Source of the DNA: Candidatus Ozemobacteraceae bacterium
GTDB taxonomy: Bacteria; Muiribacteriota; Ozemobacteria; Ozemobacterales; Ozemobacteraceae
Assembly: GCA_035373905.1 (NCBI GenBank)
Contig: DAOSOK010000009.1
Location: 44,925 to 108,924 of the forward strand
Reading direction: 5' to 3'
DNA: 64,000 nucleotides
The notes under the pieces were generated by a model. The model was not told where the DNA came from, searched no databases, and worked only from the letters and a program-made list of their open reading frames with translations. The translations under genes and the position numbers were made by a program. Position 1 is the stretch's first letter, and the number at the start of each line of letters is the position of its first letter. Below are positions 1,369 through 56,537 of this stretch, piece after piece.

Positions 1369-1402
1369 GTGGTGCCTCCGGAGTATTCTATAGTATTAGA
1401 TT

Positions 1403-2293
1403 TTATCCGCCCGAAGCGGCGCGTTTTTCACGTTCGGCGAACAGCCTGCAGATCGGCCGGATGACGGATTCGCCCGCACTCAGCCGGATAACGTCGATCC
1501 CGAGCCGTTTCGCGCGCGCAATCAGGGCGGCCCGGTCGCGCCGGGCCTCATTCATGCATCTCTCGACCGAAACCGGATCGGACGTATCCCAGATCGTCTC
1601 CTCGCCGGTTTCGGGGTCTTCCAGTTCGATCAGGCCGACGTCGGGCATCGTCGTTTCCCGGGGGTCCTCGACGAGGACGAGGATCAGGTCGTGACGTGCG
1701 GCGGTGATCCGGAGTTCGCGCTCCATCGCGGGAAGACTGATGCCGTCGGTGACGAGGAACACGATCGAGCGGCGGCGCAGGGAGTGATTCAGAAAGGCCA
1801 GCGCCGGCCTGGCGTCGGACGCCTTTTCCTCGGGCAGCGTATACATCAGGTCGCGGATCAGCCTCAGGACGTGCGTCCGCCCCTTCGCCGGCGGCACGAA
1901 CTTCTCGACGCGGCTGGTGAAAAGGCAGATGCCGACGCGGTCGTTATTGCGATCGGCCGCCATCGCCATCGCGGCGGCGAATTCGACGGCGGTCTCACGT
2001 TTCTCGCGCGAGCCGGTGCCGAACGACATCGAGGCCGAGAGATCGAGGGCGACCGCCATCTGCAGCTCGCGTTCCTCGATGTGCTCCCGGACGTGAAGTT
2101 CGCCCGTGCGGGCCGTGACCCGCCAGTCGATCGACCGGTATTCGTCACCGCGTGAGTATTCGCGAATGCCCGCGAACTCGATGCCCCGGCCTTTGAATAC
2201 CGACCGATATCCGCCGGCGTAGACCGAATCGACGAGATGACGCGTCCGTATCTCGATATGGCGGATTTCGGCCAGCAACTCGCGGGGAAGCAT
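1403..2293 (-). CDS. DUF58 domain protein (MoxR-associated, vWA-like)
   Basis: GRGIEFAGIREYSRGDEYRSIDWRVTAR and ALDLSASMSFG motifs; adjacent to moxR. Confidence 0.9.
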   Translation of the reverse strand: MLPRELLAEIRHIEIRTRHLVDSVYAGGYRSVFKGRGIEFAGIREYSRGDEYRSIDWRVTARTGELHVREHIEERELQMAVALDLSASMSFGTGSREKRETAVEFAAAMAMAADRNNDRVGICLFTSRVEKFVPPAKGRTHVLRLIRDLMYTLPEEKASDARPALAFLNHSLRRRSIVFLVTDGISLPAMERELRITAARHDLILVLVEDPRETTMPDVGLIELEDPETGEETIWDTSDPVSVERCMNEARRDRAALIARAKRLGIDVIRLSAGESVIRPICRLFAEREKRAASGG

Positions 2294-2307
2294 TCAATCC
2301 CTCTCTT

Positions 2308-3309
2308 TCAGGGAACCGGCACGCCGTCCGACAGTCGCCGGACGATCTCCTCGGAATCGATCTCGTCGGCTTCCGCCTCGTAGGTCGGGATGATGCGGTG
2401 ACGAAGAATATCGGGCAGAATGGCCTTCACGTCGTCGGGTTTCACGTACGGCCTGCCGGCGATCAGCGCGATCGCCCGTGCGGCCCTCGCGAGATAGATC
2501 GAGGCGCGCGGCGAGGCCCCGTAGCGGATATACCCCTTCAGTTCGAGACGGTATTCCTGCGGTCTGCGTGTCGCATCGACGAGGCGGAGGATGTATTCGA
2601 CGATCTTCTCGTCGACGTAGACTTTTTTCGCCATCTCGCGCAGCCCGGCCACGCTCTTCGCGTCGAGCACCGGCTTGATGACGTCGAGCGTGTGCGCCTC
2701 TTCGGCGAGGCCCATGCGCTGGACGACAAGGCGTTCCTCCTCGAACCCGGGGTAGCCGACGTTCACCTTGAACAGAAAGCGGTCGACCTGCGCTTCGGAC
2801 AGGGCGTAGGTTCCCTCGGTTTCGATCGGGTTCTGGGTCGCGAGCACCAGGAACGGTTCGGGCAGTTTGAACGTCTCATGTTCGATCGTCACCTGACGCT
2901 CCTCCATGCCTTCGAGAAGCGCGCTCTGGACCTTGGCCGGCGCGCGGTTGATCTCGTCGGCGAGGACGAACTGGGCGAAGATCGGCCCCTTGTGCGTGAA
3001 GAACGCCGTCTTCTGGGGGTCGTAGATGCGCGTTCCGATCAGGTCGGCCGGCAGCAGGTCAGGCGTGAACTGGATGCGCGAGAAGTCGACGGTGATCGTG
3101 CGGGCGAGCGCCTTGATGGCGAGGGTCTTGGCAAGGCCCGGCACGCCTTCGAGAAGGATGTGCCCGTTGGTGATGAGGGCGGCGATAAGCCTGTCGAGCA
3201 GGTGCTTCTGCCCGACGAGAACCTTGCCGACCTCGGATCGCACCTGGGCGACGATCTTGCCGGCCTCCTCGATGCCGGACTTCAGGGCGGGGTCGATTCC
3301 AGCGTTCAT
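2308..3309 (-). CDS. moxR: MoxR-family AAA+ ATPase
   Basis: HILLEGVPGLAKT (Walker A), RIQFTPDLLPAD, LADEINRAPAKVQSALLE, ATQNPIETEGTY. Confidence 0.95.
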   Translation of the reverse strand: MNAGIDPALKSGIEEAGKIVAQVRSEVGKVLVGQKHLLDRLIAALITNGHILLEGVPGLAKTLAIKALARTITVDFSRIQFTPDLLPADLIGTRIYDPQKTAFFTHKGPIFAQFVLADEINRAPAKVQSALLEGMEERQVTIEHETFKLPEPFLVLATQNPIETEGTYALSEAQVDRFLFKVNVGYPGFEEERLVVQRMGLAEEAHTLDVIKPVLDAKSVAGLREMAKKVYVDEKIVEYILRLVDATRRPQEYRLELKGYIRYGASPRASIYLARAARAIALIAGRPYVKPDDVKAILPDILRHRIIPTYEAEADEIDSEEIVRRLSDGVPVP

Positions 3310-4400
3310 CGGTGGGTCTCCTGTCTGTGGATGAGGGAACGCACGATCGTGCGCGCGTCGTCATGGAGTGCGCTGAAGGGGCGCGAGGGGAGCATCCGCG
3401 CATAGGTCACGCCTTCCCACTCGTCGACGACCGGCTTCATGCGCGACGAGACGGCGGGCGGGAAATGCTCTTCGGCGGTCCGCCGGAGCTCGTCGGGCGT
3501 CTGCTCCGGCTTCATTCTCGGATTCGCCGCAACGAGGGCCTTGTGGAAAATATCAAAGTATACTCTATAGAATTCGAGCGTCGGTTCCTTGTATTCGATC
3601 TTGAGGCGCTCGACCTCCCGCTCGAAATCAACCTTCTCCGCGGAAGGAGTGGCGACGGAAACGATCTTCGCGTCCTCGACGGCCCCGGTCTCCGACGTAT
3701 TTGGAGCACCCTCGTCGGTCGCAGGGGAAACGCGCGTTCGCGACGATGCCGCGCGGCCGCTCATGTACCAGGAAAGCAGAATCGGCAGACAGATCACGGC
3801 GGCCGTGATGAGAAGAAGCATCGAAAACGCCTTGAACAGGCTCATTCCGCCGCCGTTCGCGACGCGCGAGGCGTCGTCTTCCTCCGGTGCGGCCGGCTGC
3901 GTGCTTCCCTGCCCCGCCGCGCTCTCGTCTTCAGGGGGAAGCACCTTCACCTTGATCGCCTTCGAACTCACGCTTCGGCCGTCGGGCAATTTGAACCCCA
4001 TGGCGGGGATCGTGAACTCGCCTGGGCCGCGCGGCACAAGTTCCAGCGACGTCTGTACCTGGACCTGGCCGACGCCGTTGATGAAACTCATGTTCTGAGC
4101 CGTTCGTCTGCCGGCAATGTCGAAGTCGGGTATCGAATCGACGTTGGGTGTGATGATCTGACGGCCACCTCCACCGCCGAGCGCCTGCGACAGGGTGAGC
4201 GTCAGTGTCAGGGACTCGCCGAACCTGACGGTCGTCCGGTCGACCTCCGCGTCGAGAGAGGCGTCCAGTGCGACGCCCGGGACGACTGCGAGAAGAGACA
4301 CCAGCATCACGAGCAAGGCAACGTGCCGCAGGTGCGAATCCCGCAGTCGCATTCCGGCCTCATGGATCAGGTGACAGGTCTTCGGCATCGTGGAACCCAC
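3306..4400 (-). CDS. BatD-family protein (secreted Ig-like domain plus TM)
   Basis: Signal peptide, AEVDRTTVRFGESLTLTL...GPGEFTIPA BatD-like segment, TM at about aa 190-215. Overlaps the moxR start. The true start may be a downstream ATG. Confidence 0.7.
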   Translation of the reverse strand: MGSTMPKTCHLIHEAGMRLRDSHLRHVALLVMLVSLLAVVPGVALDASLDAEVDRTTVRFGESLTLTLTLSQALGGGGGRQIITPNVDSIPDFDIAGRRTAQNMSFINGVGQVQVQTSLELVPRGPGEFTIPAMGFKLPDGRSVSSKAIKVKVLPPEDESAAGQGSTQPAAPEEDDASRVANGGGMSLFKAFSMLLLITAAVICLPILLSWYMSGRAASSRTRVSPATDEGAPNTSETGAVEDAKIVSVATPSAEKVDFEREVERLKIEYKEPTLEFYRVYFDIFHKALVAANPRMKPEQTPDELRRTAEEHFPPAVSSRMKPVVDEWEGVTYARMLPSRPFSALHDDARTIVRSLIHRQETHR

Positions 4401-4517
4401 CTCGCATATCGTTTTTCGACCTCTTAGACCTGCGTATCATACCCAAAGTTCCAGGAAAATTCGGATATTTTTTCGGCGAGCGCGGTGAATACGATCGTCA
4501 CCAATCACCCCGGCCTG

Positions 4518-4526
4518 TGATACAAT
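4518..4526 (+). promoter_or_regulatory. Extended -10 promoter (TG-A-TACAAT), 7 nt before ATG 4534, candidate leaderless
   Basis: tgatacaat tcgagcc ATG; no Shine-Dalgarno. Confidence 0.55.
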
Positions 4527-4533
4527 TCGAGCC

Positions 4534-5916
4534 ATGACACAGGGAACAACGCTCACGCATGTTTTCGGCGCGGCTGTGGCCGTCTGCCGCGTCTGCCGCA
4601 ACTCCTGCGGATACTGCGCTTTCCGGAACGTCGAATGCGGCCTGGTTTCTCTCGAACAGCTCTCCGCCGAATTCGCCGGGTTCGCCAAGGGAGGCGCCGT
4701 GCAGGTTTCTCTCATGTCCGGCGAATCGCCGCATGAGTATCCCTCGATCCAGTTCGCCCTCAAGCGGGAATCCTGCATTTCGTACGCCGAGTATCTCCGG
4801 AAAGCGTGCTCGCTTGCCGTGGAGGCGGGACTTCTTCCGGTCGTCGAAGCCGGCGCCCTCGCCCCGTTCGACATCCAGACGGTTTCCGAAGCGGCCGCCT
4901 CGATCCGGTTTTCCCTCACCGCCGCGGGCCTGCACGGGAAAGGCGAAGCGCATGCCGAGGCCCGAAGCCGCGGCCCGGATCACGCGAAAGGGCTGATCGA
5001 GCAGGCGCACCGGTGGCAGCTTCCCTACCATCTCGATTTTCTGATCGGCATCGGCGAAACCGAAGCCGATCGTCACGAGTTCATCAAGACCATCGGCGCC
5101 TTCTGCGGAGCGGATCCGTGGCTGCAAGACGTCCGCCTGGTCCCGTTCCAGCCCGTCCCGGGAACCCCGATGAGCAGCAGGCCGCCTCTCGGGTTCGACC
5201 AGACCGCCGCGGCCATGTGCGTTCTTCGCGAGGCGTTTCCCGTTCATTGTCGCGCGATCGCGCCCCACCTCTTCTCGCGGTTTGCCGAGCTCGCCGGGCA
5301 CGGGCTGAACGATCTCGGACCGCTTCCCTTCCTGAACGGCGATCCGGTCATGCCGGGCTTTCCCGTTCCCGCGTTTGAGACGCTGAAAAACAGGCTGGCC
5401 GAGCATAACATTCTGCTCAGCGAGCGGCTCCCCCTGACGACGCCCGCGGCCGAGAACAGGGGTTCCATGTCAGCGGTTCTGGCCACCGTGCGAAACAGGA
5501 TCGTGAACCGCAACCAGGCGAAAATCAAGCTGATCGACGACAAGCACTGCTTCGTCTGCGGCCCCAGGAACCCTCAAGGGCTCCAGATCACCCTTCAGAA
5601 GAACGACCCCGGCACCTGCTCCACGGTCTGGACGTCGGGCCCGGCGCACCAGGGCTACGCCGGGATCGTTCACGGGGGCATTCTCACGACGCTGCTCGAC
5701 GAAATGATGGGTCACGCGATCATCTCCACCGGCGTACTCGCCGTAACGGCGGAAATGCGTATCAAGTTTCTGCGCCCCGCACCGATCGGCTTCCCGCTGA
5801 CCGTCGTCGGAAACCGTACGGACGGTCGCGGTCGAGTGCATCTTGCGAAAGGCGTCGTGATGATGGCGGACGGCACGGTTCTGGCCGAGGCCGAAGGACG
5901 GTTCGTTGAGTGCTGA
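4534..5916 (+). CDS. CofG-like radical SAM domain fused to a PaaI/hotdog thioesterase
   Basis: CRNSCGYC (CxxxCxxC); CofG-like segments (YAEYLRKACSLAVEAGLLP, LIGIGET, ERLPL); C-terminal HCFVCGPRNPQGL...HQGYAGIVHGGILTTLLDE of PaaI-type thioesterases. Confidence 0.75.
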   Translation: MTQGTTLTHVFGAAVAVCRVCRNSCGYCAFRNVECGLVSLEQLSAEFAGFAKGGAVQVSLMSGESPHEYPSIQFALKRESCISYAEYLRKACSLAVEAGLLPVVEAGALAPFDIQTVSEAAASIRFSLTAAGLHGKGEAHAEARSRGPDHAKGLIEQAHRWQLPYHLDFLIGIGETEADRHEFIKTIGAFCGADPWLQDVRLVPFQPVPGTPMSSRPPLGFDQTAAAMCVLREAFPVHCRAIAPHLFSRFAELAGHGLNDLGPLPFLNGDPVMPGFPVPAFETLKNRLAEHNILLSERLPLTTPAAENRGSMSAVLATVRNRIVNRNQAKIKLIDDKHCFVCGPRNPQGLQITLQKNDPGTCSTVWTSGPAHQGYAGIVHGGILTTLLDEMMGHAIISTGVLAVTAEMRIKFLRPAPIGFPLTVVGNRTDGRGRVHLAKGVVMMADGTVLAEAEGRFVEC

Positions 5917-5988
5917 AGCAATCTTTCGACCTTTTCTCCGTTTCATGGTAAAAATATCAATCGCAATCCCTGCAAGGAGCGTATCGAC

Positions 5989-6474
5989 ATGAAAGCGCAC
6001 AAGGAAAAACTCAGAGTCATTCTGTACACCTCCCATCACATGGTTCGCGGTGAGGTGCATCTGTATGAGAACAGTCGCCTGTCAGACATTCTCAATGCCG
6101 ACACGGCGACCAAGGACTTTCTCCCCATCACCAATGCGAAGCTAACCGATCTTCGCACCGGCAGCGTCGTCGAAGTGGCGTTTCTCTCGGTCAACCGGCG
6201 CCAGGTTGAGATGGTGCTCGAGGATGACGAGGCGATCGCGGTTTTCAAGGCCCGCGACATGATCTCCAAGCGCCGGTACGCCGATGCCCTCCAATTTGCC
6301 CAGCGCGCGGTCAAGGCGGTTCCGCGCGATGCCGAGGCCCAGTATCTGCTCGGCCTCTGTCTCGCGAAAACCGGCGATCCGCGAAGCGCGAAGGCGGCGT
6401 TCGAAGCCTGCCTCAAGCTCGATCCGAATCCCGAACTTTCCCAGAACGCCCGGGAAATGCTGAATTCGCTGTGA
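5989..6474 (+). CDS. Small protein with a DUF6812-like N-domain and C-terminal TPR
   Basis: VRGEVHL...RLSDILN...FLPITNA...VNRRQV pattern, then TPR-like YADALQFAQRAVKAVPRDAEAQYLLGLCL; RBS aaggag. Confidence 0.6.
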   Translation: MKAHKEKLRVILYTSHHMVRGEVHLYENSRLSDILNADTATKDFLPITNAKLTDLRTGSVVEVAFLSVNRRQVEMVLEDDEAIAVFKARDMISKRRYADALQFAQRAVKAVPRDAEAQYLLGLCLAKTGDPRSAKAAFEACLKLDPNPELSQNAREMLNSL

Positions 6475-6483
6475 GCTGACGCC

Positions 6484-8169
6484 ATGCATCGCCACGAGCC
6501 CCGGGAGCTTCGTCGTTCCTCCCCGAATCACCCGTTTTCATTCCGCGGATATGCGCTGATCCTGCTTTTGGCAGGATTCCTGACGGCGCCGTTTTCCGCA
6601 TCCGCCGCTCCTGTCAGGCTCGTCATTCTCCACACCGGCGACATCCACGGCCACATGTCGCCTCAGCCTGACCCGACGACGGCGAGCGAACCCAAGCCTC
6701 TCGTCGGCGGGTACGCGGCGCTCGCGACCGTCGTCGACCAGGAACGCCTTGCCGCGCTGAAATCCGGTGGTATAGCATTATATATGGATGGCGGCGATTC
6801 GTTCCAGGGCACCCCCGTCGTCGACGAGACCAAGGGAATGTGCATGATCGCCGCGAAGAACCTCCTCAGAACCTTCGCCGTCACGATCGGAAACCACGAT
6901 TTCGATTACGGGGTCGCGGGGCTCGCTTCAGCGGCGGCGGCGGCTCGATACCCCATGCTCGCCTGCAACGTGTTCGACACGAAAACCGGTCGGCTTCTTC
7001 CCTTCCTGAAGCCCTACGTCAGGCTTTCCCTCAAGGGAATCGACGTCGCTTTCATCGGCCTTCTCTCCCCGGACACCGCGCGCATTTCCCTCGCGGAAAA
7101 CGTCGAAGGGGTCGATTTTCGCGATCCGGTACCGATTCTCTCCGAACTCATTCCGCGACTTCGAAGGCAGGGGGTCGATTTCGTCGTTCTTCTCTCGCAT
7201 GTAGGACTGGAAGACGACAAGAAGCTCGCAGACGCCGTTCCGGGCATCGACCTCATTCTCGGAAGTCACAGTCACACCCCGATGACCGAGCCCTTCTTCA
7301 GTGAGCAACGGCTTGTCCCGATCATCCACAACGCCTTCGACAACCGCGTCGTCGGGAAAGTCACGCTTGACCTGGAGCCGTGGCGAACGGTCATCCAGTA
7401 TGAGCCGATTTCGATGTATATCGCATCCTATCCTGAAAATTCGGCGATGAAGCGTCTCGTCGCCGGGTATCAGGATGAAATCGATGCAAAGATGAGCGCC
7501 TTCGTGGGCACGTCTTCCGTCGACCTGATACGCGGAATCATCGGCGGGGACTCTCCCGAAGGGTCTTTTATATCAGACGCTATACGTCAGATCGCCGGCG
7601 CCGATTTCGCCTTCACCAATATCGGCGGAGTGCGCTACCCGGTCTGGAAGGGCCCCGTGACGAAGAATGATCTGTTCCTGCTGCAACCGTTCCTGAACTA
7701 TGTCGATGTCATCACCATGACCGGCGAGCAGATCGTCGAGTTGATGGAAAAATCACTCTCTGCGGGATTTTCACCGGTTACCGATGCGGACAACCAGTTC
7801 GCAATGGAGAATTTCAAACTGCGCGCGAGCGGCATGATACGGGAATTTCAGGGGGAATACGGGTATCTGATTCCTTCGAATCTCAAAGTCACTTTCGATC
7901 CACATCGCCCCCCGATGAAACGCATCGTCGAGATCACCGACGACAGCGGCGGAAAGCTCGACCCGAAGCGCCGTTACAAGGTCGCGTTGAACTCGTATAT
8001 GAGCACGGGCGGCGATGGATACACGTATCTGAAGTCGATGAAACGCACCACCACGGGCATTCTTGTCCGGGACGCCATCGAGCGGTATATCGAATCCTCT
8101 GGTGGAATCAGCGTCCTCCCGCCCGTGCGCATGAACAACACGGCGCTCACCGTCGAGCCGATTCAATAA
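6484..8169 (+). CDS. Secreted bifunctional 5'-nucleotidase / UDP-sugar hydrolase (calcineurin-like metallophosphoesterase plus 5'-NT C-domain)
   Basis: HTGDIHG, DGGDSFQG, IGNHDFDYG, LSHVG, GSHSH motifs; TNIGGVR and YMSTGGDGY in the C-domain. Confidence 0.9.
   Translation: MHRHEPRELRRSSPNHPFSFRGYALILLLAGFLTAPFSASAAPVRLVILHTGDIHGHMSPQPDPTTASEPKPLVGGYAALATVVDQERLAALKSGGIALYMDGGDSFQGTPVVDETKGMCMIAAKNLLRTFAVTIGNHDFDYGVAGLASAAAAARYPMLACNVFDTKTGRLLPFLKPYVRLSLKGIDVAFIGLLSPDTARISLAENVEGVDFRDPVPILSELIPRLRRQGVDFVVLLSHVGLEDDKKLADAVPGIDLILGSHSHTPMTEPFFSEQRLVPIIHNAFDNRVVGKVTLDLEPWRTVIQYEPISMYIASYPENSAMKRLVAGYQDEIDAKMSAFVGTSSVDLIRGIIGGDSPEGSFISDAIRQIAGADFAFTNIGGVRYPVWKGPVTKNDLFLLQPFLNYVDVITMTGEQIVELMEKSLSAGFSPVTDADNQFAMENFKLRASGMIREFQGEYGYLIPSNLKVTFDPHRPPMKRIVEITDDSGGKLDPKRRYKVALNSYMSTGGDGYTYLKSMKRTTTGILVRDAIERYIESSGGISVLPPVRMNNTALTVEPIQ
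7569..7584. repeat. TATA-N8-TATA spaced palindrome (perfect), inside the nucleotidase gene
   Basis: TATA TCAGACGC TATA; codons TTT ATA TCA GAC GCT ATA. Confidence 0.8.
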
Positions 8170-8173
8170 TCCA

Positions 8174-8788
8174 ATGGCAAAAGCCTGGTTCAAGGACCGC
8201 CTGAACGATCCGTGGCTCCGAAAGGCCCGCCAGGAGCAGTTCCGCTCGCGCGCGGCCTACAAGCTCGAGGAAATCCACCGCAAATACAAACTGCTGAAGC
8301 CCGGCATGAAGATTCTCGATCTCGGAGCTGCGCCCGGCAGCTGGACGCAGATGGCCCTTCACTGTCTGAACGGGAAAGGGCTCGTCGTCGCCATCGACCT
8401 CCTCCCGATCGACCCGATCGAGGGCGCCATCATTCTCCAGGGCGATATACGTGCCGAAGAGTCGCAAAAGAAGATCGCCGATGCCGCCAAAGGCAAGTTC
8501 GACGTCATTCTGAGCGATATGGCGCCAGACACGACCGGCATCCACCATGCCGACACATCGAACTCCGCCGCCCTGGTGACGCTTGCTCTCGATCTCTGCG
8601 CCAAGTGGCTCAAGCCCGGCGGCAGCTTCGTGGCCAAGGTATTCGAAGGCTCCGAATACAAGGATCTTCATTCCGAGGCAAAAAAAAAGTTCGAGTTCCT
8701 CAAATCCGTCAACCCCGAAGCCTCCCTCACGAGAAGCCGCGAAGTCTACCTCGTCGGAACCGGCTTCAAAGGCAATGCTCCGACGTAA
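8174..8788 (+). CDS. rlmE: 23S rRNA Um2552 methyltransferase RlmE
   Basis: RSRAAYKLEEI, LDLGAAPGSW, ILSDMAP, FVAKVF, ASLTRSREVYL. Confidence 0.95.
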   Translation: MAKAWFKDRLNDPWLRKARQEQFRSRAAYKLEEIHRKYKLLKPGMKILDLGAAPGSWTQMALHCLNGKGLVVAIDLLPIDPIEGAIILQGDIRAEESQKKIADAAKGKFDVILSDMAPDTTGIHHADTSNSAALVTLALDLCAKWLKPGGSFVAKVFEGSEYKDLHSEAKKKFEFLKSVNPEASLTRSREVYLVGTGFKGNAPT

Positions 8789-48127: not shown

Positions 48128-48133
48128 CCGGCT

Positions 48134-49204: not shown

Positions 49205-49210
49205 ATCCGA

Positions 49211-49219
49211 AGTATAGCA
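49211..49219 (-). promoter_or_regulatory. Extended -10 promoter (TG-C-TATACT), 6 nt before the pilT ATG, candidate leaderless
   Basis: Minus strand tgctatact tcggat ATG. Confidence 0.6.
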
Positions 49220-49307
49220 CGAGTATCTCCGCGACTATGCAGGAAACGACCGCCATGATAAACTTTGCTCCGGTCGATCCCAAACCATTCATACCAGGAC
49301 AAATCCG

Positions 49308-51635
49308 ATGGCGAAGATCCAGCTCGAACAACTGCTCACCAGGCTCCGTCCCCTTCTCGCCACTCTGATCACCGGCTTCAAAACCGGCGAATACCGGCTT
49401 CGCAGGGAAGCGGCGATCGCGCTTTCCAAGTTCAAGTGCGAGCGCGCGACGAACTTTCTGCTCGAGAATTTCGAGAGCGACAACATCCAGGACTTCATGG
49501 CGCTCGCTCTCGGAAACATCGAAAGCTCCCGGGCCATCTCCCTGCTGATGCAGGCGCTCAACGACTCACAGCAGGAAGTCCGTTTCAACGCCGCCCAGGC
49601 GCTCGGCATGATCAAGAGCCCGGAAGCCTTCAACGTGCTGATGGAGTCCCTGAACGAGTACGCCGACACCAATATCTCCGGCGGCGCGGCCACGAGCGGC
49701 GGCGGGAAGATTTTCTTCGAAGAGGAAGCCATCATCTCAGCCATCAACGCTTTGGGCAAGATCAAGAACAATCTATCGACACCGCTCCTGAAACGCATTC
49801 TCGCCCAGGACAAGAGCCCCCGCATTCGCGCCTCGATCATCATGGCCCTCGGCATGATGTCGAACGAACGCATGCTCCCGATCTTTCAGGCGGCCCTCCG
49901 CGACGAGGATTCGCGGGTGCGGGCGAATGCGATCGAAGCAATCGAAGGTCTCAAATCGAGTTCTATTGTTGGAATTATACAACCATACCTCGACGACCCG
50001 AACAACCGCGTGCGGGCGAACGTGGCGAAGGCCATCTGGAAGTTCGGCGACTTCGACGTTTCCGACACCCTCATCCAGATGCTGACGCACGCCGACAAGC
50101 TGTATCGCGCCTCGGCCGCGTATGCGCTCGGCGAGATCCGCGACGTCCGCTTCATCCCGAAACTGGCCATGGCGCTTCGCGACGACGACGCCGACGTCCG
50201 GCGGAACGCGGCGAACGCCCTCAAGAAACTCCAGTCTCCCGACGCCGTCAAGTTGCTCACGCCGCTCCTGGACGACCCCAACTACGACGTGCGCGTACAG
50301 GTCGTCCAGGCGATCGTCCGCTGCTCCCCGTCGTCGATTCCCGAACTGCTCGTCCCGCGCCTCGAGAGCGAAGAGAACCCGATCGTCAAGGCGACTCTCA
50401 TCAGCTGTATCGCGGAAACCTCCGATCAGCAGTATACCGAACTGCTGTTCAAGTTTCTCGAAGACCCCGACAGCCGCGTCGTCTCCAACACGATCGAGGC
50501 CCTTCAGAAACTCAATAAATCGGCCCCGCCCCAGAAGCTCACCACCCTTCTCAAGCGCCTGCTGTCTCACGAGGACAACCGCATCAAGACGAACGCCATC
50601 CGCGCCCTCTGGAGCTGGAACGAGTACAGCGTCCTCGACAACCTGCACCAGCTTCTGAACCACTCGGAACTCCGGCACCGCCAGTCGGCCATGTATGTCC
50701 TCGGCGAAATCGGAACGGCCCTCAGCAACGACCCGTCCGTCACCACATCGGCGAACACGCTCATCGCGGAGCTTCTGGAGCCGGGGGCCGCGGAATCGGC
50801 CGCCGCCGTTCCGGCCCAGCTCGCCGACCCCCCCGCGCCGGAAGCCCCGCCGACCGTTCAGCCGCAGGCAAAACCGGCGCCGGCAGCGGAGCCGGCCCCT
50901 GCCCCACCCCAGACGGAGACTCCGGTTTCCGAACCGCCCGCCGAAACCTTCGACCAGGAGCTGGAGCAGGCTGCGAACGCCGTCAATGCCCGCGAATTCG
51001 AACAGGCGCTGGCAATTTACACTTCGATCATCGAGGCCCAGCCCGACAACTTCAAGGCGATTCTCGGCCTGGCGAACCTGCAGTACATCCGGAAAAACTT
51101 TGCCGACGCCGCGCCCCTGTATGAAAAAGCGCTGGCCCAGCAGCCCAACCTGGTCAAGGCGCATTACAACCTCGGAACGATCGCCTACTTCCAGAAGGAC
51201 TTCCAGAAGGCCCGCGATCATCTCGTCAAGGCCCTGACCCTGTATCCGAAACTCCTCGGCGCCTATCTGATCCTCGCCCAGATCTTCCAGTTCGGCGGCC
51301 GCACCGAAGAGAGCATCAAGCTCCTGACCAAGGCCGTCGAACTCTCGCCCCGCAACCCCGTGCTGTTCCAGAAGCTCGCGATGCTCCACCTTCACGCGCG
51401 CAACTTCGACCAGGCCACGGAAGTCCTCACCCGCGCGATCTCGCTTTCCCCGCTCGACATCGAGTCGAACCTGCTTCTCGCCTACTGTCTGCAGGCGACG
51501 TCACGGTCGGCCGAGGCGTTCAAGGCCTTCGACGCGACGCTCAAAGCCTGCGCCCAGTCGCCGAACCAGGACGAATCGCTCAAGGCTCTCATGCAGAGTT
51601 ACCTGTTCGTGAAATCAACGCTCAAAGAGTCCTGA
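49308..51635 (+). CDS. HEAT-repeat plus C-terminal TPR protein (paralogue of 44919-47093)
   Basis: DEDSRVRANAIEAI, DPNNRVRANVAKAI, DDDADVRRNAANAL; Pro/Ala linker; TPRs (VKAHYNLGTIAYF). Confidence 0.85.
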   Translation: MAKIQLEQLLTRLRPLLATLITGFKTGEYRLRREAAIALSKFKCERATNFLLENFESDNIQDFMALALGNIESSRAISLLMQALNDSQQEVRFNAAQALGMIKSPEAFNVLMESLNEYADTNISGGAATSGGGKIFFEEEAIISAINALGKIKNNLSTPLLKRILAQDKSPRIRASIIMALGMMSNERMLPIFQAALRDEDSRVRANAIEAIEGLKSSSIVGIIQPYLDDPNNRVRANVAKAIWKFGDFDVSDTLIQMLTHADKLYRASAAYALGEIRDVRFIPKLAMALRDDDADVRRNAANALKKLQSPDAVKLLTPLLDDPNYDVRVQVVQAIVRCSPSSIPELLVPRLESEENPIVKATLISCIAETSDQQYTELLFKFLEDPDSRVVSNTIEALQKLNKSAPPQKLTTLLKRLLSHEDNRIKTNAIRALWSWNEYSVLDNLHQLLNHSELRHRQSAMYVLGEIGTALSNDPSVTTSANTLIAELLEPGAAESAAAVPAQLADPPAPEAPPTVQPQAKPAPAAEPAPAPPQTETPVSEPPAETFDQELEQAANAVNAREFEQALAIYTSIIEAQPDNFKAILGLANLQYIRKNFADAAPLYEKALAQQPNLVKAHYNLGTIAYFQKDFQKARDHLVKALTLYPKLLGAYLILAQIFQFGGRTEESIKLLTKAVELSPRNPVLFQKLAMLHLHARNFDQATEVLTRAISLSPLDIESNLLLAYCLQATSRSAEAFKAFDATLKACAQSPNQDESLKALMQSYLFVKSTLKES

Positions 51636-51656
51636 CCATCCTCAAGGAGAGATCCC

Positions 51657-51839
51657 ATGCAACTCGTCAAAGCAAACCGGTTCTGGAACTACAAAACCTA
51701 CGACCTGACCAAAATGAGAGGAGACGATTTCCTCGACAAACTCGGCGAACTTCTCGACGACGCCGGCCGCAACGGTTGGGAACTCGCCTATATGTGCGAG
51801 AATTATATGATTCTCAAACAGTTATTCGAACAGAAATAA
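51657..51839 (+). CDS. Small DUF4177-like protein
   Basis: WNYKTY...LGELLDDAGRNGWEL pattern; RBS aaggag. Confidence 0.65.
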   Translation: MQLVKANRFWNYKTYDLTKMRGDDFLDKLGELLDDAGRNGWELAYMCENYMILKQLFEQK

Positions 51840-51863
51840 TTCGGCGGGGCCGGCCGCAGGCAG

Positions 51864-53972
51864 ATGCCTTCGAAGAATCGTATACAGGATACAATCACCC
51901 TCGATACGGACATCAGTCTCCTGCGCGGGATCGGGCCCAAACGCGGGGAAACCCTGCGCGCCGCCGGCATTCGCACCGTCGCCGACCTTCTTCGCCTCCA
52001 GCCGCGCCGTTACGAGGACCGCACCCGCATCCGCCCGCTCCGTGAACTTCGCGTGGAACGTCTCCTGCAGGGCCCGTTCAGGGCCGAGGTGAAATCCTTC
52101 CGCGGAAGCAGGCCGCGCGCGGGCCTCTCGATCGTGTGGGCCGAGTTCGACGACGGAACGGCCGTCGTGCGGGCCCGGTGGTTCAACCGCCCGTATCTCG
52201 TCAAGACGCTCGTCGTCGGCAAAGCCTACTTTCTGTACGGCACCGCCGTCGAGATGAAGGGCGTCCCGATCCTCGACAATCCCGAGCTCGAGCTCGAGGA
52301 CCCCGCGGAAACCGCGCCCGTTCCCGGCGCCCTCACTCCCGTCTATTCCGCCGGAAAAGCGTTTGCCGAGGCGAAGCTGTCGGGAAGGCAGATCCGCCAG
52401 CTGATCGCGCGCACCCTCACAACGATCGACTGGGCCGCGAGTTTCCCGAACCTGCTCGAGTCCGGTCCCTTCCCGCGGCTCCGGCGCGCCTTTTTCGATT
52501 TTCACTGGCCCCGCACGCAGGAGGCCGCCGATCACGCTCGCCACACGGCGGCCTTCTTCGACCAGGTCCTGTTCCAGATGGCTGTCTGGCAGAGGCGCAA
52601 ACGCATCACCGGCATCCTCGGCCCTGATCCGGCCTCTGCCGTCGCACCGCCGGCCGCCGAACCCGGGTATCCCATCCCGTTCCGGCTGACGCGGGACCAA
52701 AGCCTGGTTCTCGGAAAGATGCTCGCCGGACTTCGACGGGGGGCCGACGGCCCTCCTCTCAATCTGCTCCTCCAGGGTGACGTCGGCTCGGGAAAGACGC
52801 TGGTGGCCTTTCTCGCCATGCGGCATCACGCCGAGCGCCACGAACCCGGCGCCACCTGCGTGTTCATGGCCCCGACCGAAATCCTGGCGAGACAGCACCT
52901 GGAGCGGTTCCAATCGTTCTTTCCCGACGCCGCGGCCGGCTCCGATCTTCTCATCGGCGCCCTCCGGCCGCAGGACCGGCGGAACCTGCTCTCAAAGCTC
53001 TCAAATGGGAAACTCCGCTACCTGTTCGGCACCCATGCGCTGTTCCAGGACGCCGTCATCGTCCCGAATCTCGCCTTCTGCGTCATCGACGAGCAGCAGC
53101 GGTTCGGGGTCGATCACCGTCGCGCGCTCACGGCCAAGGCGGGCTCGCGGACGCCGCACCTGCTGCTCATGTCGGCGACGCCAATTCCCCGCACCCTCTC
53201 GCTGACGATCTACGGCGATCTCGATGTCGGCATCATCCGTGAGATGCCGCCGGGCAGAAAACCGGTCACAACCACCCTGCTCAGCTCGCCGGAGGACGCC
53301 TTCCCGTACATCCGGGAAGCGGTGTCGCGCCGGGAGCAGGTGTATTACGTCTGCCCGCTCATCGAGACATCGAAGAAGCTTGCCGCAACATCGGTTCGCG
53401 AAGCCGTCGAGCGGCTTCGCTCCGCGTTTCCCAACGCCACCGTCGCCGCGGTAACCGGCGACCTGGCTTCGGACCGCCGCCAGGCCGCAATGGAGGCGTT
53501 TCATGCCGGAAACATCGACGTTCTTGTTGCCACGACGGTCATCGAGGTCGGGGTGGACGCGCCGGCGGCGACGCTGATGGTGGTCGAGAACGCCGAGCGG
53601 TTCGGGCTTTCGCAGCTGCACCAGCTTCGAGGCCGGGTCGGCCGGGGCGACCGCTCGTCGAGCTGTCTGCTGATAAGCGCCGACGGCGAGGCGAACGAGC
53701 GGCTCCGGCTGGTTGCAGGCACGACCGACGGTTTCGAACTCGCCGCCGAGGATTTGCGTCTGCGAGGCCCGGGCGATCTGGCCGGAACGCGTCAGAGCGG
53801 CATCGCCCACCCCGCTTTTTCGCACCGCATGACCCCGGAGCTGATCGAGAAGGCGCGAAACCGCGCCCTCGAGCTGCTCACCGTCGAGCCCGACGAGACG
53901 CGCGCCTGGTTTGCCGCCCGCATGCGCGAGAGTTTCGGCGACCGGCTCGAAACATTCATGGAAGGGGGCTGA
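51864..53972 (+). CDS. recG: ATP-dependent DNA helicase RecG
   Basis: LLQGDVGSGKT, MAPTEILARQH, VIDEQQRFG, MSATPIPRTL, ERFGLSQLHQLRGRVGRG, DLRLRGPG. Confidence 0.97.
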   Translation: MPSKNRIQDTITLDTDISLLRGIGPKRGETLRAAGIRTVADLLRLQPRRYEDRTRIRPLRELRVERLLQGPFRAEVKSFRGSRPRAGLSIVWAEFDDGTAVVRARWFNRPYLVKTLVVGKAYFLYGTAVEMKGVPILDNPELELEDPAETAPVPGALTPVYSAGKAFAEAKLSGRQIRQLIARTLTTIDWAASFPNLLESGPFPRLRRAFFDFHWPRTQEAADHARHTAAFFDQVLFQMAVWQRRKRITGILGPDPASAVAPPAAEPGYPIPFRLTRDQSLVLGKMLAGLRRGADGPPLNLLLQGDVGSGKTLVAFLAMRHHAERHEPGATCVFMAPTEILARQHLERFQSFFPDAAAGSDLLIGALRPQDRRNLLSKLSNGKLRYLFGTHALFQDAVIVPNLAFCVIDEQQRFGVDHRRALTAKAGSRTPHLLLMSATPIPRTLSLTIYGDLDVGIIREMPPGRKPVTTTLLSSPEDAFPYIREAVSRREQVYYVCPLIETSKKLAATSVREAVERLRSAFPNATVAAVTGDLASDRRQAAMEAFHAGNIDVLVATTVIEVGVDAPAATLMVVENAERFGLSQLHQLRGRVGRGDRSSSCLLISADGEANERLRLVAGTTDGFELAAEDLRLRGPGDLAGTRQSGIAHPAFSHRMTPELIEKARNRALELLTVEPDETRAWFAARMRESFGDRLETFMEGG

Positions 53973-53978
53973 CCGCAG

Positions 53979-54539
53979 ATGCGCGTCATTTCAGGATCGG
54001 CCAAAGGCCGTCAACTCAAGATGCCCAAGGGGGGAAAAACCCGCCCGGCGATGGACCGCGTGAAGAGCTCGCTGTTCTCGATTCTTGCCGCCCGCATTCC
54101 CGACTGCCGGTTTCTCGACCTGTTCGCAGGTTCGGGAAGTCTCGGCATCGAGGCGCTTTCGCGCGGCGCGGCGTTCGCCGCGTTCGTCGACATGTCGAAC
54201 GACTGCATCACGGCAATTCGCGAGAATCTCGAGATGACCAGGCTCGCCGACCGGGGAAAACCCTTCCGGATGGACTGCCTCTCGTTCCTGCGCGGCCGGC
54301 CGCTCGAACCTTTCGATATCGTCTGCATCGACCCGCCCTACCTGAAGGGCCTGCTCGAGCCGATCCTGAACGAGCTTCCGGTCTGCCCTCTCTTCAACGA
54401 ACGCACGATCTTCATCATCGAGCGACAAAAGAAAGACGACCTGGGCCTCGACAAGAAGCCGGCCCTCGAACAGACCGACGAGCGCCTGTTCGGCGACACC
54501 GTTCTGACGTTCTTCCGGCTGAAGAAGACCGCATCTTGA
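53979..54539 (+). CDS. rsmD: 16S rRNA m2G966 methyltransferase RsmD
   Basis: MRVISGSAKGR, TRPAMDRVK, LDLFAGSGSLGIEALSRGA, IDPPY. Confidence 0.95.
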   Translation: MRVISGSAKGRQLKMPKGGKTRPAMDRVKSSLFSILAARIPDCRFLDLFAGSGSLGIEALSRGAAFAAFVDMSNDCITAIRENLEMTRLADRGKPFRMDCLSFLRGRPLEPFDIVCIDPPYLKGLLEPILNELPVCPLFNERTIFIIERQKKDDLGLDKKPALEQTDERLFGDTVLTFFRLKKTAS

Positions 54540-54700
54540 GGCTGCCGCCCCTCCCCCGCCCGAACAGTGATTTTCTGGTCGTGCGTACAAGAACGGACAT
54601 GGCTCTCAGAGATACGCCGGTACAACATGCTCGGTGTTCCAAGACGCAACCGAATCATCAGCGTCATCTGCGGATTGGTTCTCGAGAAAGCAAAAAGAGA

Positions 54701-54728
54701 CCGGCGCCCCGGAAATCCGGGGCGCCGG
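54701..54728 (-). terminator. Intrinsic terminator for the minus-strand gene 54751-55614
   Basis: CCGGCGCCCCGG-aaat-CCGGGGCGCCGG with an A-run on the left (U-tail on the minus strand). Confidence 0.7.
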
Positions 54729-54750
54729 CTTGTTGTATTCGGGAGGGGGA

Positions 54751-55614
54751 TTACTTGAGATTCTGGGTCTGCTTGAGCTGGATGTATTCCTGGTAGGCCG
54801 CGCGATACTCGGCGAGTGCCGCCTTCACTTCGGCCGCGGAGCCGCCGGCGGTGGTGACCAGCTGCGTGTATTTGTTATACGCCGCGATATAGCGGGCGTG
54901 GGCATCGGTCACAGAAGTGTTCGACACGGACGTGCTCGTGGGCGTCGTGGTAGTCGTCGTGGTCGGAGCGGCCGCAGTCGAGTCGACAGCGGGGGCGGCG
55001 ACGGTCACGTCGGTGACGGGGGCCGTATCGGACACGTGGGCGTCCGAGCCGGAGATCACGACGGCATCCTGGTCGCCGATGGTGACCGGGCCGGTCTGGT
55101 TCATGGACGGGATGACCGTGCTCATGTCGTAGTCGGACGGAGTGACCATGATTTCATCGCTGCCAGCGAGGACTTCCTGGCTGCTGGTCTTCTTCTTGTG
55201 GCGGCGATACAGATAGATGCCGACCGCGACGGCGGCGATGATGATCAGCGCCGGAATGAACAGAGGGCTCGCGATGATGCCGGCGACCCAACCAGCCACG
55301 GCACCGACGCCGGCCGCAATGGCCCCGCCGATCGCGCCAAGAGCGCCGAGGAGACCACCACCAACGGCCGCGACACCGCCGACGACCGCGGTTCCGATTC
55401 CGGCGATGCCGCCGGCTGCGCCGACCGCACCGGCAACGGCGGGGGCGGCGAGAACGACGCCGGCTCCGACGACCGCACCGGCCGCGGCACCGACAACGAC
55501 GCTCTTCTTGTCGAGCGCATGGGCGGGCGCGGGCTGGAAGACGGTGAAGTCGACGACCATAAGCAGAGACAGGACGATGCAGATCACCGAACTGAACGAT
55601 TTACTCTTTCTCAT
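54751..55614 (-). CDS. Hypothetical exported/membrane protein with a long Gly/Ala-rich hydrophobic segment
   Basis: Start at MRKSKS (RBS AGGGGG); signal peptide; about 85 aa of GA-rich hydrophobic sequence; TM plus YRRHKKK; Thr-rich linker; Tyr-periodic C-terminal helix. Confidence 0.75.
   Translation of the reverse strand: MRKSKSFSSVICIVLSLLMVVDFTVFQPAPAHALDKKSVVVGAAAGAVVGAGVVLAAPAVAGAVGAAGGIAGIGTAVVGGVAAVGGGLLGALGAIGGAIAAGVGAVAGWVAGIIASPLFIPALIIIAAVAVGIYLYRRHKKKTSSQEVLAGSDEIMVTPSDYDMSTVIPSMNQTGPVTIGDQDAVVISGSDAHVSDTAPVTDVTVAAPAVDSTAAAPTTTTTTTPTSTSVSNTSVTDAHARYIAAYNKYTQLVTTAGGSAAEVKAALAEYRAAYQEYIQLKQTQNLK
54876..54891. repeat. TATA-N8-TATA spaced palindrome (perfect), with a GC-rich spacer
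   Basis: TATA CGCCGCGA TATA; minus-strand codons TAT ATC GCG GCG TAT AAC. Confidence 0.8.
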
Positions 55615-55736
55615 ACGTAACCCCCTGATAATCGCGTTACGAACGGTACACCGATTAGATAATTCAAGTGTAATGATGCAACGGGGGGGCGTCAAGGTGT
55701 CTGCCCCAAATTTGAAAATTTTCATTCAAAAAGAGA

Positions 55737-55961
55737 ATGCGGGCGGATCACGATCCTCCCTTGAACCGGACGACCGGCAATCTCGAAGCCACGTTCGCAT
55801 TCCAGCCTGCCGAAGCTCGAGAGGCTCTCGCCCTTCGAGAGGCTCAGGGCGAACGGAAGACAATCATTCTGGAGGTCACGAAAAACGAGTGGAACGAGTG
55901 GAATGATGTGCTCGCCCGGAGATACGGTCTCTCTTGTCCCGGGGTTACCCCTGTCGTATGA
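55737..55961 (+). CDS. Possible small hypothetical ORF (74 aa)
   Basis: Open frame filling the intergenic gap; weak GC3 bias; short direct repeats; may be non-coding. Confidence 0.25.
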   Translation: MRADHDPPLNRTTGNLEATFAFQPAEAREALALREAQGERKTIILEVTKNEWNEWNDVLARRYGLSCPGVTPVV

Positions 55962-56009
55962 TGTACACAGATTCGAGGTGTTACCTTACCTTCATGACCG
56001 GAGGCAATC

Positions 56010-56537
56010 ATGTATCTTGACAAGCGGAACCAGGTCGAAGTCGGCATCGCCGATCAGATCGAGATCTCGTTTCATATTCTCAACTATAATCAAAGCCTCG
56101 TGCAGTTCGCAGACAGCAAGGCGAACGCCCTTCTCCTGATCAACTCGATTTTCATTGCCGCCCTGACGCCGTTCATCGAGAGGCTGAGCCACAATTCGTT
56201 CGCCTCGGCGATCGCCGTGGGATTTTTCATCTTCAGCATCATCTCGATCCTGATGTCCCTCGGGGTCATCATGACCCGCAGCGCCGGCATCGTCGAGAAC
56301 CGCACGAAGACTCTCGCATTCTACGGCCACATCATCGAAAACAATTCGGCCGAGGGGTACATTCACGAGGTTTCGTCGTGCGAGGCGAAGAAGTTCAATG
56401 AATCAATTCTTACAAATATATATACCGTCTCGAAGATCGCGGGCGCAAAGTTCTCGATCTACAACCACGGGCAGACGATGACATTGATCTCATCCCTGCT
56501 CTGGATCGTGACCATTCTGTTCATTCCGTTCATTTGA
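56010..56537 (+). CDS. Pycsar-effector-family (DUF5706/PycTM-like) membrane protein, standalone
   Basis: QFADSKANALL motif, TM pair, LAFYGHI, KIAGAKFSIY...C-terminal TM; RBS GGAGG. Confidence 0.75.
   Translation: MYLDKRNQVEVGIADQIEISFHILNYNQSLVQFADSKANALLLINSIFIAALTPFIERLSHNSFASAIAVGFFIFSIISILMSLGVIMTRSAGIVENRTKTLAFYGHIIENNSAEGYIHEVSSCEAKKFNESILTNIYTVSKIAGAKFSIYNHGQTMTLISSLLWIVTILFIPFI

Follow-up and report, generated by a model that had tools for sequence, protein, structure and literature searches.

HIP1 (GCGATCGC) of cyanobacteria is a short self-complementary word that is hyper-abundant in genes, over-represented relative to codon-aware null models, conserved between orthologues and found in certain lineages only, with a function that long escaped explanation (PMC5861425, PMC4390886). 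A precedent for the geometry is given by Type IC enzymes, whose homodimeric half-S subunits read interrupted palindromes such as GAA-N7-TTC; their targets (EcoR124I delta-50, EcoDXXI truncations, NgoAV) consist of two short adenine-bearing half-sites, related by dyad symmetry across a fixed non-specific spacer of 7-8 bp (PMC3874165). The element analyzed here, two TpA steps with A/T neighbours at a centre-to-centre distance of exactly 12 bp (approximately ATAT/TATA-N8-ATAT/TATA), resembles both in these respects. It differs from HIP1, a contiguous 8-mer of ~16 bits for which an enrichment of 15-300-fold and cognate orphan methylases are known, in being gapped (4+4), enriched 2- to 12-fold overall, embedded in an AT-rich halo of ~8 bp on either side and low in information content (~8 bits for TA-N10-TA, with roughly half of the pairs representing background). 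For Type IC systems, enrichment or conservation of restriction targets in the host genome is not known, and no hsd genes were seen in the 110 kb studied here.

The element occurs in DNA of an uncultured Ozemobacteraceae bacterium (Riflebacteria) of 62% GC. Sequence from one contig of this genome was analyzed over 110.6 kb, comprising the window (the whole stretch of 64,000 nucleotides originally inspected, positions 1..64000) and 46.6 kb of flank, supplemented with about 130 kb from relatives; an earlier note on the window had called the element a candidate genome-wide code, and "genome-wide" is an extrapolation from this amount of sequence. The window holds 37 distinct TA-N10-TA loci, about half of them above background, and the excess corresponds to ~1 site per 2-2.5 kb. 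Loci are Poisson-spaced along the contig (CV 0.93), arguing against a lattice arrangement, and 22 of 62 fall within the first fifth of their genes, a mild concentration that hints at an expression-linked role instead. Within genes the dyad is made via synonymous choices (Ile ATA, Tyr TAT, T-ending codons before A-starting ones); dyads are also present in intergenic AT-rich DNA, and TTAA is nearly absent from this DNA. The 8-bp spacer, described in the note as unconstrained, indeed carries no sequence information and is mildly AT-enriched. The AT-rich islets in which the note had placed the element are real, as AT-rich 16-mers are 2.2-4 times commoner than in codon-shuffled sequence (411 vs 188; 139 vs 35), but only 39 of the 121 islets in the 110 kb, about one third, hold a 12-bp TA dyad. 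The possibility of an assembly artefact was not borne out, with two independent assemblies being identical over 21 kb and the sequence being contained in contigs from several unrelated runs (2016-2025).

All 7 perfect TATA-N8-TATA sites listed in the note were recovered. Pairs of TATA in the window number 7 at 12 bp and 0-2 at all other non-overlapping spacings (0 at k=5 and 2 at k=11, in line with the claimed peak at k=8), with the caveat that a multiple-of-3 spacing is also expected from a coding-level effect. Dinucleotide shuffles of the window yielded 0 perfect sites and amino-acid-preserving synonymous-codon shuffles 0.60 (largest 2 in 500 shuffles), so that the enrichment is ~12-fold and not ~100-fold, as the rough expectation of 0.07 in the note had implied. 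One-mismatch sites number 16 at 12 bp and 6-11 at most other short spacings, and about half of those in the note's list are probably due to chance; the counts of 16 and 20 at 10 and 14 bp represent 2-bp shifts of the same sites. As a unit, perfect TATA-N8-TATA proved too narrow, the constrained unit being TA-N10-TA with A/T neighbours. Over the 110.6 kb, TA/TA was found in 88 pairs at 12 bp vs ~41 at other in-phase spacings, and counts at 11 and 13 bp were not raised. Of the 256 dinucleotide pairs, none stands out more strongly at d>3 than this one (z=7.4; ratio 1.9, with the next pair at 1.22). The corresponding trinucleotide-pair scan is headed by TAT/TAT (4.2-fold) and ATA/ATA (4.0-fold).

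At the codon level, in-frame ATA pairs number 17 at i+4 and 0-3 at other distances, and 17 of 143 Ile-x3-Ile pairs are written ATA/ATA, with ~0.6 expected. Broken down by frame, the excess is seen for codon ATA (17 vs ~1), nAT|A (8 vs ~2), nnT|AT (16 vs ~3) and nTA|T (6 vs ~1). Tyr pairs four codons apart are written with TAT in 11 of 22 cases, compared to 19% elsewhere; an i+4 peak was absent from every other codon, GTA, CTA and TTA included, and from A/T-ending codons taken together. The sense-oriented matrix nearly equals its own reverse complement, and the perfect sites fall in genes on both strands and in different codon phases (T|ATA in 5 of 7, TAT|A in 2 of 7), as the note had reported. 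The occurrence in three codon frames, of ATA as well as its complement TAT, together with the strand symmetry, fits a DNA-level and not a codon-level signal. An identical kinase peptide is written with the dyad in domain 1 and without it in domain 2 (ATC ATC CAC CGC GAT CTG).

In the 46.6 kb flank, the general signal at 12 bp was observed for TA-TA (42 vs ~15), ATA-ATA (16 vs ~4) and TAT-TAT (20 vs ~4), and flank genes exceeded the codon-shuffle null for ATA (14 vs 1.9) and TAT (16 vs 4.7). The 12-bp peak was seen in all four related species, which when pooled contain 10 perfect TATA-N8-TATA sites at 12 bp and at most 2 at any other spacing. It was not seen in 20 kb of syntenic sequence from Ca. 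Ozemobacter sibiricus (65.5% GC) or in AT-rich Riflebacteria. Between species, dyad TpAs are retained above phase-matched controls: full conservation applies to 23 of 32 codon-choice TpAs in dyads vs 30 of 68 outside dyads (p=0.011; 100 sites in total, the second region by itself being underpowered), and for nTA codons to 8 of 12 vs 5 of 22 (p=0.025). The 12-bp peak is carried by TpAs that three lineages have kept (72 vs ~15-25), lineage-specific TpAs have a weak preference (19 vs ~9), and register shifts and nearby replacements between species preserve a 12-bp dyad. At the level of whole loci, 12-bp pairs are conserved as often as 15-bp pairs (72% vs 68%). Perfect copies turn over fast, most being imperfect in relatives at 85% identity, and among the 6 window sites covered by orthologous sequence, 54876 alone is perfect in every covering lineage.

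This last site (54876..54891; TAT ATC GCG GCG TAT AAC) lies in the minus-strand gene 54751-55725 and is carried in perfect form by each of the four lineages (78-88% nucleotide identity), which differ in its spacer and flanks. The copy at 7569..7584, in a 5'-nucleotidase gene (TTT ATA TCA GAC GCT ATA), ends in a strain-specific A; position 7584 is G in three independent runs and both relatives, indicating a recent gain via a Met-to-Ile change. At 11483..11498, 32 nt into a minus-strand FHA-domain gene, the dyad is perfect in relative C and lost in relative B, where two further 12-bp dyads lie 5 bp upstream and 9 bp downstream. The site at 14027..14042 in an AsmA-like gene (AAT ATA TCT ATG CAT ATA on the minus strand) is TA-N10-TA in all four lineages and perfect in the window lineage (W) and A. 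That at 16630..16645 (ATT ATA CAT AGA GAT ATA) coincides with the HRD motif of kinase domain 1; its TAT-N9-TAT is common to all four lineages, both third-position A's being window-specific. For 20011..20026, in the extracellular arm of a kinase gene, a TA dyad two bases rightward (20013) is retained in W, B and C. The remaining perfect site, 37232..37247, is found in phase TAT|A in a gene for an SNF-family transporter (TAT ATC ATG CGT TAT ATC). Among TA-N10-TA sites, 9368..9381 (TATATC gaagtg AGTATT) is retained in all four lineages, and 7417..7430 (TGTATA tcgcat CCTATC), 19134..19147 (TATATC gacaga GATACA) and 23347..23360 (TrkH gene, ATTATT tcaatc GCTATC) in W, B and C; at 23756..23769 the register varies (W at 23756, B and C at 23754) with the 12-bp spacing intact. 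The one-mismatch site TAAA-N8-TATA at 45489..45504 still has the TA dyad and is perfect TATA-N8-TATA in relative L024, and TATT-N8-TATA at 49964..49979 is perfect in relative L025. The AT-rich stretch 9055..9109, upstream of a gene starting at 9108 (JGI call), contains several overlapping 12-bp dyads and overlaps one sigma-70-like match.

That the pattern arose by chance, having been selected by eye from AT-rich islets and boosted by codon periodicity, is very improbable. When all 4-mer dyads of the window are scanned blind, TATA-8-TATA ranks only ~17th (p=3e-7, 1.6 million tests), which makes the window by itself indecisive, and the flank has just 2 perfect copies vs the 5 expected from window density; chance is nevertheless contradicted by the replication of the generalized signal in the previously unseen flank and four other species, and the signal survives amino-acid-preserving shuffles and is the single top outlier of the unbiased dinucleotide and trinucleotide scans. 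Quite improbable, too, is an RNA or translation signal, with UAUA-type words 12 nt apart in AU-rich islets acting as RNase or RNA-binding-protein sites, that is, entry or cleavage sites on otherwise structured GC-rich mRNAs, or as ribosome-pausing rare-codon clusters. The islets do use rare codons, which are known to cluster, the spacing equals exactly four codons, the in-frame ATA pair is the strongest single component, the first fifth of genes is favoured, and as UAUA is self-complementary, strand symmetry is compatible with an RNA signal. Such a signal is, however, difficult to reconcile with an excess of both ATA and TAT in three frames, with the lack of an i+4 peak for A/T-ending codons in general and for GTA, CTA and TTA, with dyads in intergenic DNA, and with the signal not being seen in the 20-kb syntenic sample of O. 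sibiricus, which is equally GC-rich and shares the universal translation and decay machinery.

We regard neutral molecular drive as rather unlikely. Here, a lineage-specific repair, nicking or recombination activity would turn near-cognate sequence into the dyad, such that the motif accumulates and persists with individual sites being functionless; in E. coli, very-short-patch repair skews CCWGG-related words. Confinement to one lineage, quick turnover of perfect copies with recent gains (7584 A, both third positions at 16630), conversion of only 12% of Ile-x3-Ile pairs and Poisson-like placement are consistent with drive. Yet an ongoing process predicts the opposite of what is observed, namely a weak 12-bp preference of new TpAs and a peak carried by old, conserved ones, and substitutions of different kinds (C>A, C>T, G>A) are needed to make TA, a hard task for one biased process. 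Unlikely as well is methylation of the dyad by a bipartite adenine methyltransferase (Type I or orphan) with a homodimeric specificity subunit, the site being kept within reach everywhere by selection as a housekeeping epigenetic mark, analogous to GATC for Dam/SeqA/MutH and HIP1 for orphan methylases. Methyl-directed repair operates on a ~2-kb scale of site density, matching the ~1 site per 2 kb. In this bipartite site, each half offers an adenine on either strand, and the N8 spacer is constant in length and free in sequence. With the inner A/T as targets, 8 bp would separate the methylated bases, a distance inside the 6-9 range tabulated for Type I enzymes (PMC3874165), and HIP1 shows that a methylase-linked palindrome is selectable within genes (PMC5861425; PMC4390886). 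In opposition to this, no hsdM/hsdS or orphan methylase was seen in the 110 kb, the sole methyltransferase matches being FtsJ-like RNA enzymes; restriction targets, rather than being enriched, are as a rule neutral or avoided; and the tolerated half-sites (TAT, ATA, ATAC) are looser than typical Type I specificity.

The dyad looks like a candidate docking site for a paired DNA-reading protein, previously undescribed. With about even confidence, we interpret it as a genus-level dispersed signal in double-stranded DNA, the putative site of a reader that is specific to this lineage and acts as a dimer or through two domains, as suggested by the strict spacing, by half-sites that are self-complementary and by the signal's confinement to one lineage. 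Two TpA steps ~1.1 helical turns apart would be read or kinked by this protein, which could be nucleoid-associated or chromosome-organizing or, alternatively, a bipartite adenine methyltransferase with the geometry of Type I enzymes, with selection maintaining a minimum site density in an otherwise GC-rich chromosome. Of the dimeric reader proposed in the note, the DNA-level, strand-symmetric, strictly spaced, partly conserved signal written through synonymous choice stands, and the recombinase part is unsupported, as the link to loxP and tyrosine recombinases involves 4+4 bases only and no 13-bp arms are conserved.

LexA boxes (CTGT-N8-ACAG, E. coli-type) and CtrA boxes (TTAA-N7-TTAA) share the 4-N8-4/4-N7-4 geometry with an unconstrained or AT-rich spacer. 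They are promoter operators of small regulons, whereas the dyad is mostly intragenic and does not match sigma-70-like promoters. USS/DUS (~1 per kb) and Chi (~1 per 5 kb) are likewise of about kilobase density, coding-embedded and maintained with turnover, but their words are contiguous and asymmetric, high in information and biased in strand or orientation. The SlmA SBS, Noc NBS and MatP matS sites resemble the dyad in being dispersed, often intragenic palindromes; spread over the chromosome, they are read by dimers, as is proposed for the dyad. These are 12-16-bp high-information palindromes in 20-100 copies with regional exclusion or confinement, whereas the density of the dyad suggests many hundreds of low-information sites.

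The window spans 45123-109122 of a metagenomic contig of 133 kb, recovered from sludge and digester samples and read over 110 kb; its GC content is about 62%, with 70-85% GC at third codon positions. The nearest relatives with a name are Candidatus Ozemobacteraceae / Riflebacteria MAGs. An earlier note had counted seven perfect TATA-N8-TATA sites here, and a search of the window returned exactly these seven matches, as against none in 100 dinucleotide shuffles. Among the 79 TATA words of the window, seven pairs are spaced 12 bp apart, with 0-2 pairs at each other non-overlapping spacing, including the in-phase control spacings of 9 bp (0 pairs) and 15 bp (2 pairs), and shuffling of synonymous codons within genes left 0.60 perfect sites (maximum 2 in 500 shuffles). 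The one-mismatch sites that had been counted alongside reach only about twice background. When every 4-mer dyad is scanned blind, TATA-8-TATA ranks only about 17th, so the window alone is not decisive. An assembly or polishing artefact is ruled out, two assemblies being identical base for base over 21 kb; the sequence is also found in contigs of unrelated studies from 2016-2025.

The contig was walked outward, which yielded 46.6 kb of flank outside the window. Perfect sites are scarce in the flank (n=2); its counts at 12 bp are of the same strength as in the window, with 42 TA-TA (vs about 15), 16 ATA-ATA (vs about 4) and 20 TAT-TAT pairs (vs about 4). Codon shuffling in the flank genes gave 1.9 ATA pairs (maximum 6) vs 14 observed and 4.7 TAT pairs (maximum 9) vs 16 observed, and the 9- and 15-bp spacings were at null level. 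In window and flanks alike, the 12-bp pairs of ATA and of TAT stand 3- to 7-fold above synonymous shuffles. The 12-bp peak is present in the syntenic loci of all four related species (78-88% nucleotide identity), and the pooled relatives hold 10 perfect TATA-N8-TATA sites, with at most two pairs at each other spacing. No signal was detected in the syntenic 20 kb of Candidatus Ozemobacter sibiricus (65.5% GC; RecG 51% identical) or in 75 kb of AT-rich Riflebacteria. A metagenome scan with an AsmA-like protein returned two loci only.

In 110.6 kb of contig DNA, 88 TA-TA pairs are found at 12 bp vs about 41, with no excess at the 11- and 13-bp spacings. TA/TA at 12 bp is the top deviation (z=7.4) of all dinucleotide pairs at any spacing beyond adjacent codons, and TAT/TAT and ATA/ATA rank as the top two trinucleotide pairs at 12 bp. 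The excess thus spans a wider dyad of two TpA steps exactly 12 bp apart (TA-N10-TA), of which TATA-N8-TATA is the sharpest subset, and the observation of the earlier note is confirmed and generalised. The symmetrised refined matrix consists of a-T-A-T and A-T-A-t on either side of eight uninformative bases; the motif is gapped and symmetric, carries about 8 bits, and has half-sites, ATAT and TATA, that are both self-complementary. The N8 spacer is without base preference, and A+T amounts to about 50% in the spacer and 60-70% in the flanks of the dyad, compared with 38% overall. A longer consensus was rejected, as iterative matrix refinement added only 'not G' or 'not C' beside the half-sites, and so were 12-bp arrays running to 24 or 36 bp, there being no peaks at those distances.

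Read in gene sense, five of the seven perfect sites take the form nnT ATA nnn nnn nnT ATA, with host genes on either strand. Among 33,138 codons of the contig, 17 ATA-ATA codon pairs lie at i+4 vs 0-3 at each other distance up to 12, and 11 of 22 Tyr-x3-Tyr pairs are TAT/TAT vs 19% at other distances; the i+4 behaviour is confined to the codons ATA and TAT, which are reverse complements of each other. An amino-acid periodicity of isoleucine does not explain this, since Ile-Ile pairs at i+4 show only a modest rise in the same codons (from about 118 to 143) and codon shuffles preserve the protein. Nor does a general i+4 rhythm of rare codons, which is not present, and codons ending in A or T generally have no such rhythm among the contig codons. 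Rare-codon clusters that pause translation would be defined by codon on the sense strand, whatever their dinucleotide content. AT-rich codons do cluster, and the AT-rich islets described in the earlier note are real: the window has 411 16-mers of 12 or more A/T vs 188 in the codon shuffle, and 139 of 13 or more vs 35. The dyad is present in only 39 of 121 islets in the 110 kb, and the 12-bp peak is TA-specific and found in three frames; the two thirds of islets lacking the dyad may be clusters of rare codons or of A/T of an ordinary kind, or have another origin.

The excess occurs in all frames in which synonymous freedom permits TpA (codon ATA, nAT|A, nnT|AT, nTA|T) and is absent where tyrosine fixes TA, and the matrix oriented by gene sense approximates its own reverse complement. 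An internal control is provided by a receptor kinase (16238-21364) that carries a tandem pair of Hanks kinase domains, in which the peptide IIHRD(I/L)KP(A/S)N is encoded by an islet over the HRD motif in domain 1 (ATT ATA CAT AGA GAT ATA) and by GC-rich codons in domain 2 (ATC ATC CAC CGC GAT CTG). The frames, the symmetry of the matrix and the kinase pair, together with the null result in the 20-kb sample of the equally GC-rich sister genus, favour a lineage-specific reading of a double-stranded DNA signal over a reading by ribosomes, tRNAs or general RNases; as UAUA is self-complementary, this evidence weakens a reading in RNA but leaves it some probability. Priming sites for primase were set aside by reasoning only, the trinucleotides ATA and TAT being too common to be limiting.

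Perfect copies turn over: among the five in 1-26 kb, two each have a perfect counterpart in a single relative, and the others are off by 1-3 half-site bases. The A at 7584, which closes the perfect site at 7569 in a 5'-nucleotidase gene, is private to this strain, G (ATG, Met) being found in three independent runs and two relatives; the perfect dyad at 7569 therefore stems from a recent non-synonymous change, Met to Ile. At 16630, the site over the HRD motif, both third-position A's are new, atop a TAT-N9-TAT common to all four lineages, and at 54876 the site is perfect in all four despite differing spacer and flanks. At 23754/23756 the register has shifted with the 12-bp dyad kept, and at 11478-11492 the dyad has been replaced nearby, again with 12-bp spacing. 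The underlying TA dyads are much stabler than the perfect copies: TpAs conserved in three lineages have a 12-bp peak of 72 vs about 15-25, and lineage-specific TpAs have barely any (19 vs about 9). Conservation across orthologues, which the earlier note had proposed as a test, holds for individual TpAs made by codon choice: with sites ascertained in all but one lineage, those of dyads are fully kept in 23 of 32 cases vs 30 of 68 for non-dyad TpAs (p=0.011), and in 8 of 12 vs 5 of 22 for nTA codons, in a small sample whose second region by itself is not significant. For whole loci, conservation within ±6 bp is 72% at 12 bp and equally high, 68%, in the 15-bp control.

The 110.6 kb contain 75 dyad loci, about half of them above background, so that an excess site occurs every 2-2.5 kb. 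The distances from one locus to the next follow an exponential distribution (CV 0.93) and placement within the contig is Poisson-like, contradicting a regular 2-kb lattice. Annotated genes hold 62 dyad loci, of which 22 lie in the first fifth of the gene, an over-representation with a chi-square of about 10.4 (4 d.f., our own arithmetic). Three dyads, at window position 19134 and contig positions 22290 and 41051, have the spacer CGACAGA in common (ATATC-GACAGA-nATAT), which may be chance or mark a sub-family of sites. As to other elements, TTAA is near-absent (1 in 64 kb vs 9 expected from a second-order model; 3 in 110 kb) and CTAG is depleted (5 observed vs 16), perhaps through avoidance of restriction sites or some other constraint that acts on palindromes containing TA. 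A cross-phylum hairpin-pair repeat (GAGCCTGTCGAAGG ... CCTTCGACAAGCTC) has one copy at 19033 of the contig (about 2880-2960 in the fetched locus L019), which lies 26 kb to the left of the window. All relatives share a gene of the PycTM family (PF18967; 56010-56537, plus strand), the membrane effectors of Pycsar defence, which overlaps a RecD2-like helicase gene at the end of the latter, and a metallo-beta-lactamase-fold gene in the left flank (14239-15216 in the fetched locus L016) has a weak match to the anti-Pycsar protein Apyc1.

The signal is a TA dyad with strict 12-bp spacing and strand symmetry, which synonymous codon choice has put in place and which is restricted to this lineage and retained above controls. 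The proposal of the earlier note that it is the site of a putative dimeric reader is plausible, with partial support from the strict spacing, the strand symmetry and the retention above controls. A rigid dimeric or two-domain reader would touch a pair of TpA steps separated by about 1.1 turns, and selection would act for a minimum site density in the GC-rich chromosome. Such a reader might be a nucleoid-associated or chromosome-organising dimer, or a bipartite adenine methyltransferase with the geometry of the symmetric Type IC targets of homodimeric half-S subunits; no DNA methyltransferase gene was seen in 110 kb of the contig. It is conceivable, and in our estimate rather improbable, that the gapped TA dyad is a chromosome-wide housekeeping mark, which a putative homodimeric Type I-like reader would read, and perhaps adenine-methylate, in the dyad-bearing genus of Ozemobacteraceae. 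Selection would therefore, on the same reading, distribute sites over the coding sequence at about one per 2 kb, AT-only words being otherwise too rare in this genome. GATC, which serves Dam, SeqA and MutH, would be the model for such a mark, beside a possible role of HIP1 in cyanobacteria.

The main non-functional rival is a neutral drive by biased repair, with no function for any one site; the fact that new TpAs prefer the 12-bp spacing only weakly counts against it. Transposon excision footprints or 12-bp insertions were rejected, as the sites are free of indels in orthologues and the universal motifs of kinases are unbroken. The likeness to the loxP core of tyrosine recombinases drawn in the earlier note comes to 4+4 bases, with no other support, and loxP-type inverted arms of 11-13 bp around a 6-8-bp spacer do not fit information held in about four bases per side with flanks merely AT-enriched. 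Sigma-70-like promoter matches number 7 in 1-20000 vs 3.5 expected; intragenic sigma-70 promoters (-35/-10, 16-18-bp spacer) were dismissed, as only two matches overlap dyad loci and none a perfect site. A gene for an HU-type DNA-binding protein of 93 aa (41623-41904, plus strand) has a dyad-like site at 41900 overlapping its stop codon and a second at 41949, just past the downstream terminator hairpin; because HU is not sequence-specific, this placement is read as coincidence.

To our knowledge, chromosome-wide selection of a DNA word within coding sequence is known in few cases, the main examples being HIP1, USS/DUS, Chi and KOPS, each of which has opened up, or may yet open up, some part of chromosome biology. 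The dyad would be the first such word to be gapped and AT-only, and also the first from Riflebacteria, as far as we know a phylum without a cultured member. As it is restricted to one genus-level clade, the reader protein should be findable by gene-content comparison. Synonymous sites in a GC-rich genome can carry DNA-level constraint, which bears on codon-usage models, dS-based dating and gene design, and if the reader is a methyltransferase, bipartite Type I-like recognition would be tied to a housekeeping role.

In agreement with the earlier note, which knew of no described match, a literature search on motif strings found nothing. The nearest biological parallel is the cyanobacterial HIP1, a palindrome linked to a methylase and under selection within genes, with a role still debated (PMC5861425, PMC4390886). 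Like HIP1-like palindromes, the dyad is over-represented relative to a codon-aware null, and its TpAs are conserved above control sites, in a modest sample with an equal 15-bp locus control; HIP1 differs in being contiguous and having cognate orphan methyltransferases, while the dyad is a gapped 4-N8-4 with no DNA methyltransferase seen in 110 kb. DNA uptake sequences are contiguous, asymmetric, high-information 9-12-mers, in contrast to the gapped, symmetric dyad of about 8 bits. With the nucleoid-protein site sets SBS, NBS and matS the dyad shares dyad symmetry and strict half-site spacing, and with the targets of Type I or bipartite methyltransferases it shares two adenine-bearing half-sites and a fixed non-specific spacer (N8; range 5-8 bp). 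Among these, the targets of homodimeric half-S Type IC enzymes, such as GAA-N7-TTC and those of EcoDXXI truncations, have 7 or 8 bp between the methylated bases (PMC3874165).
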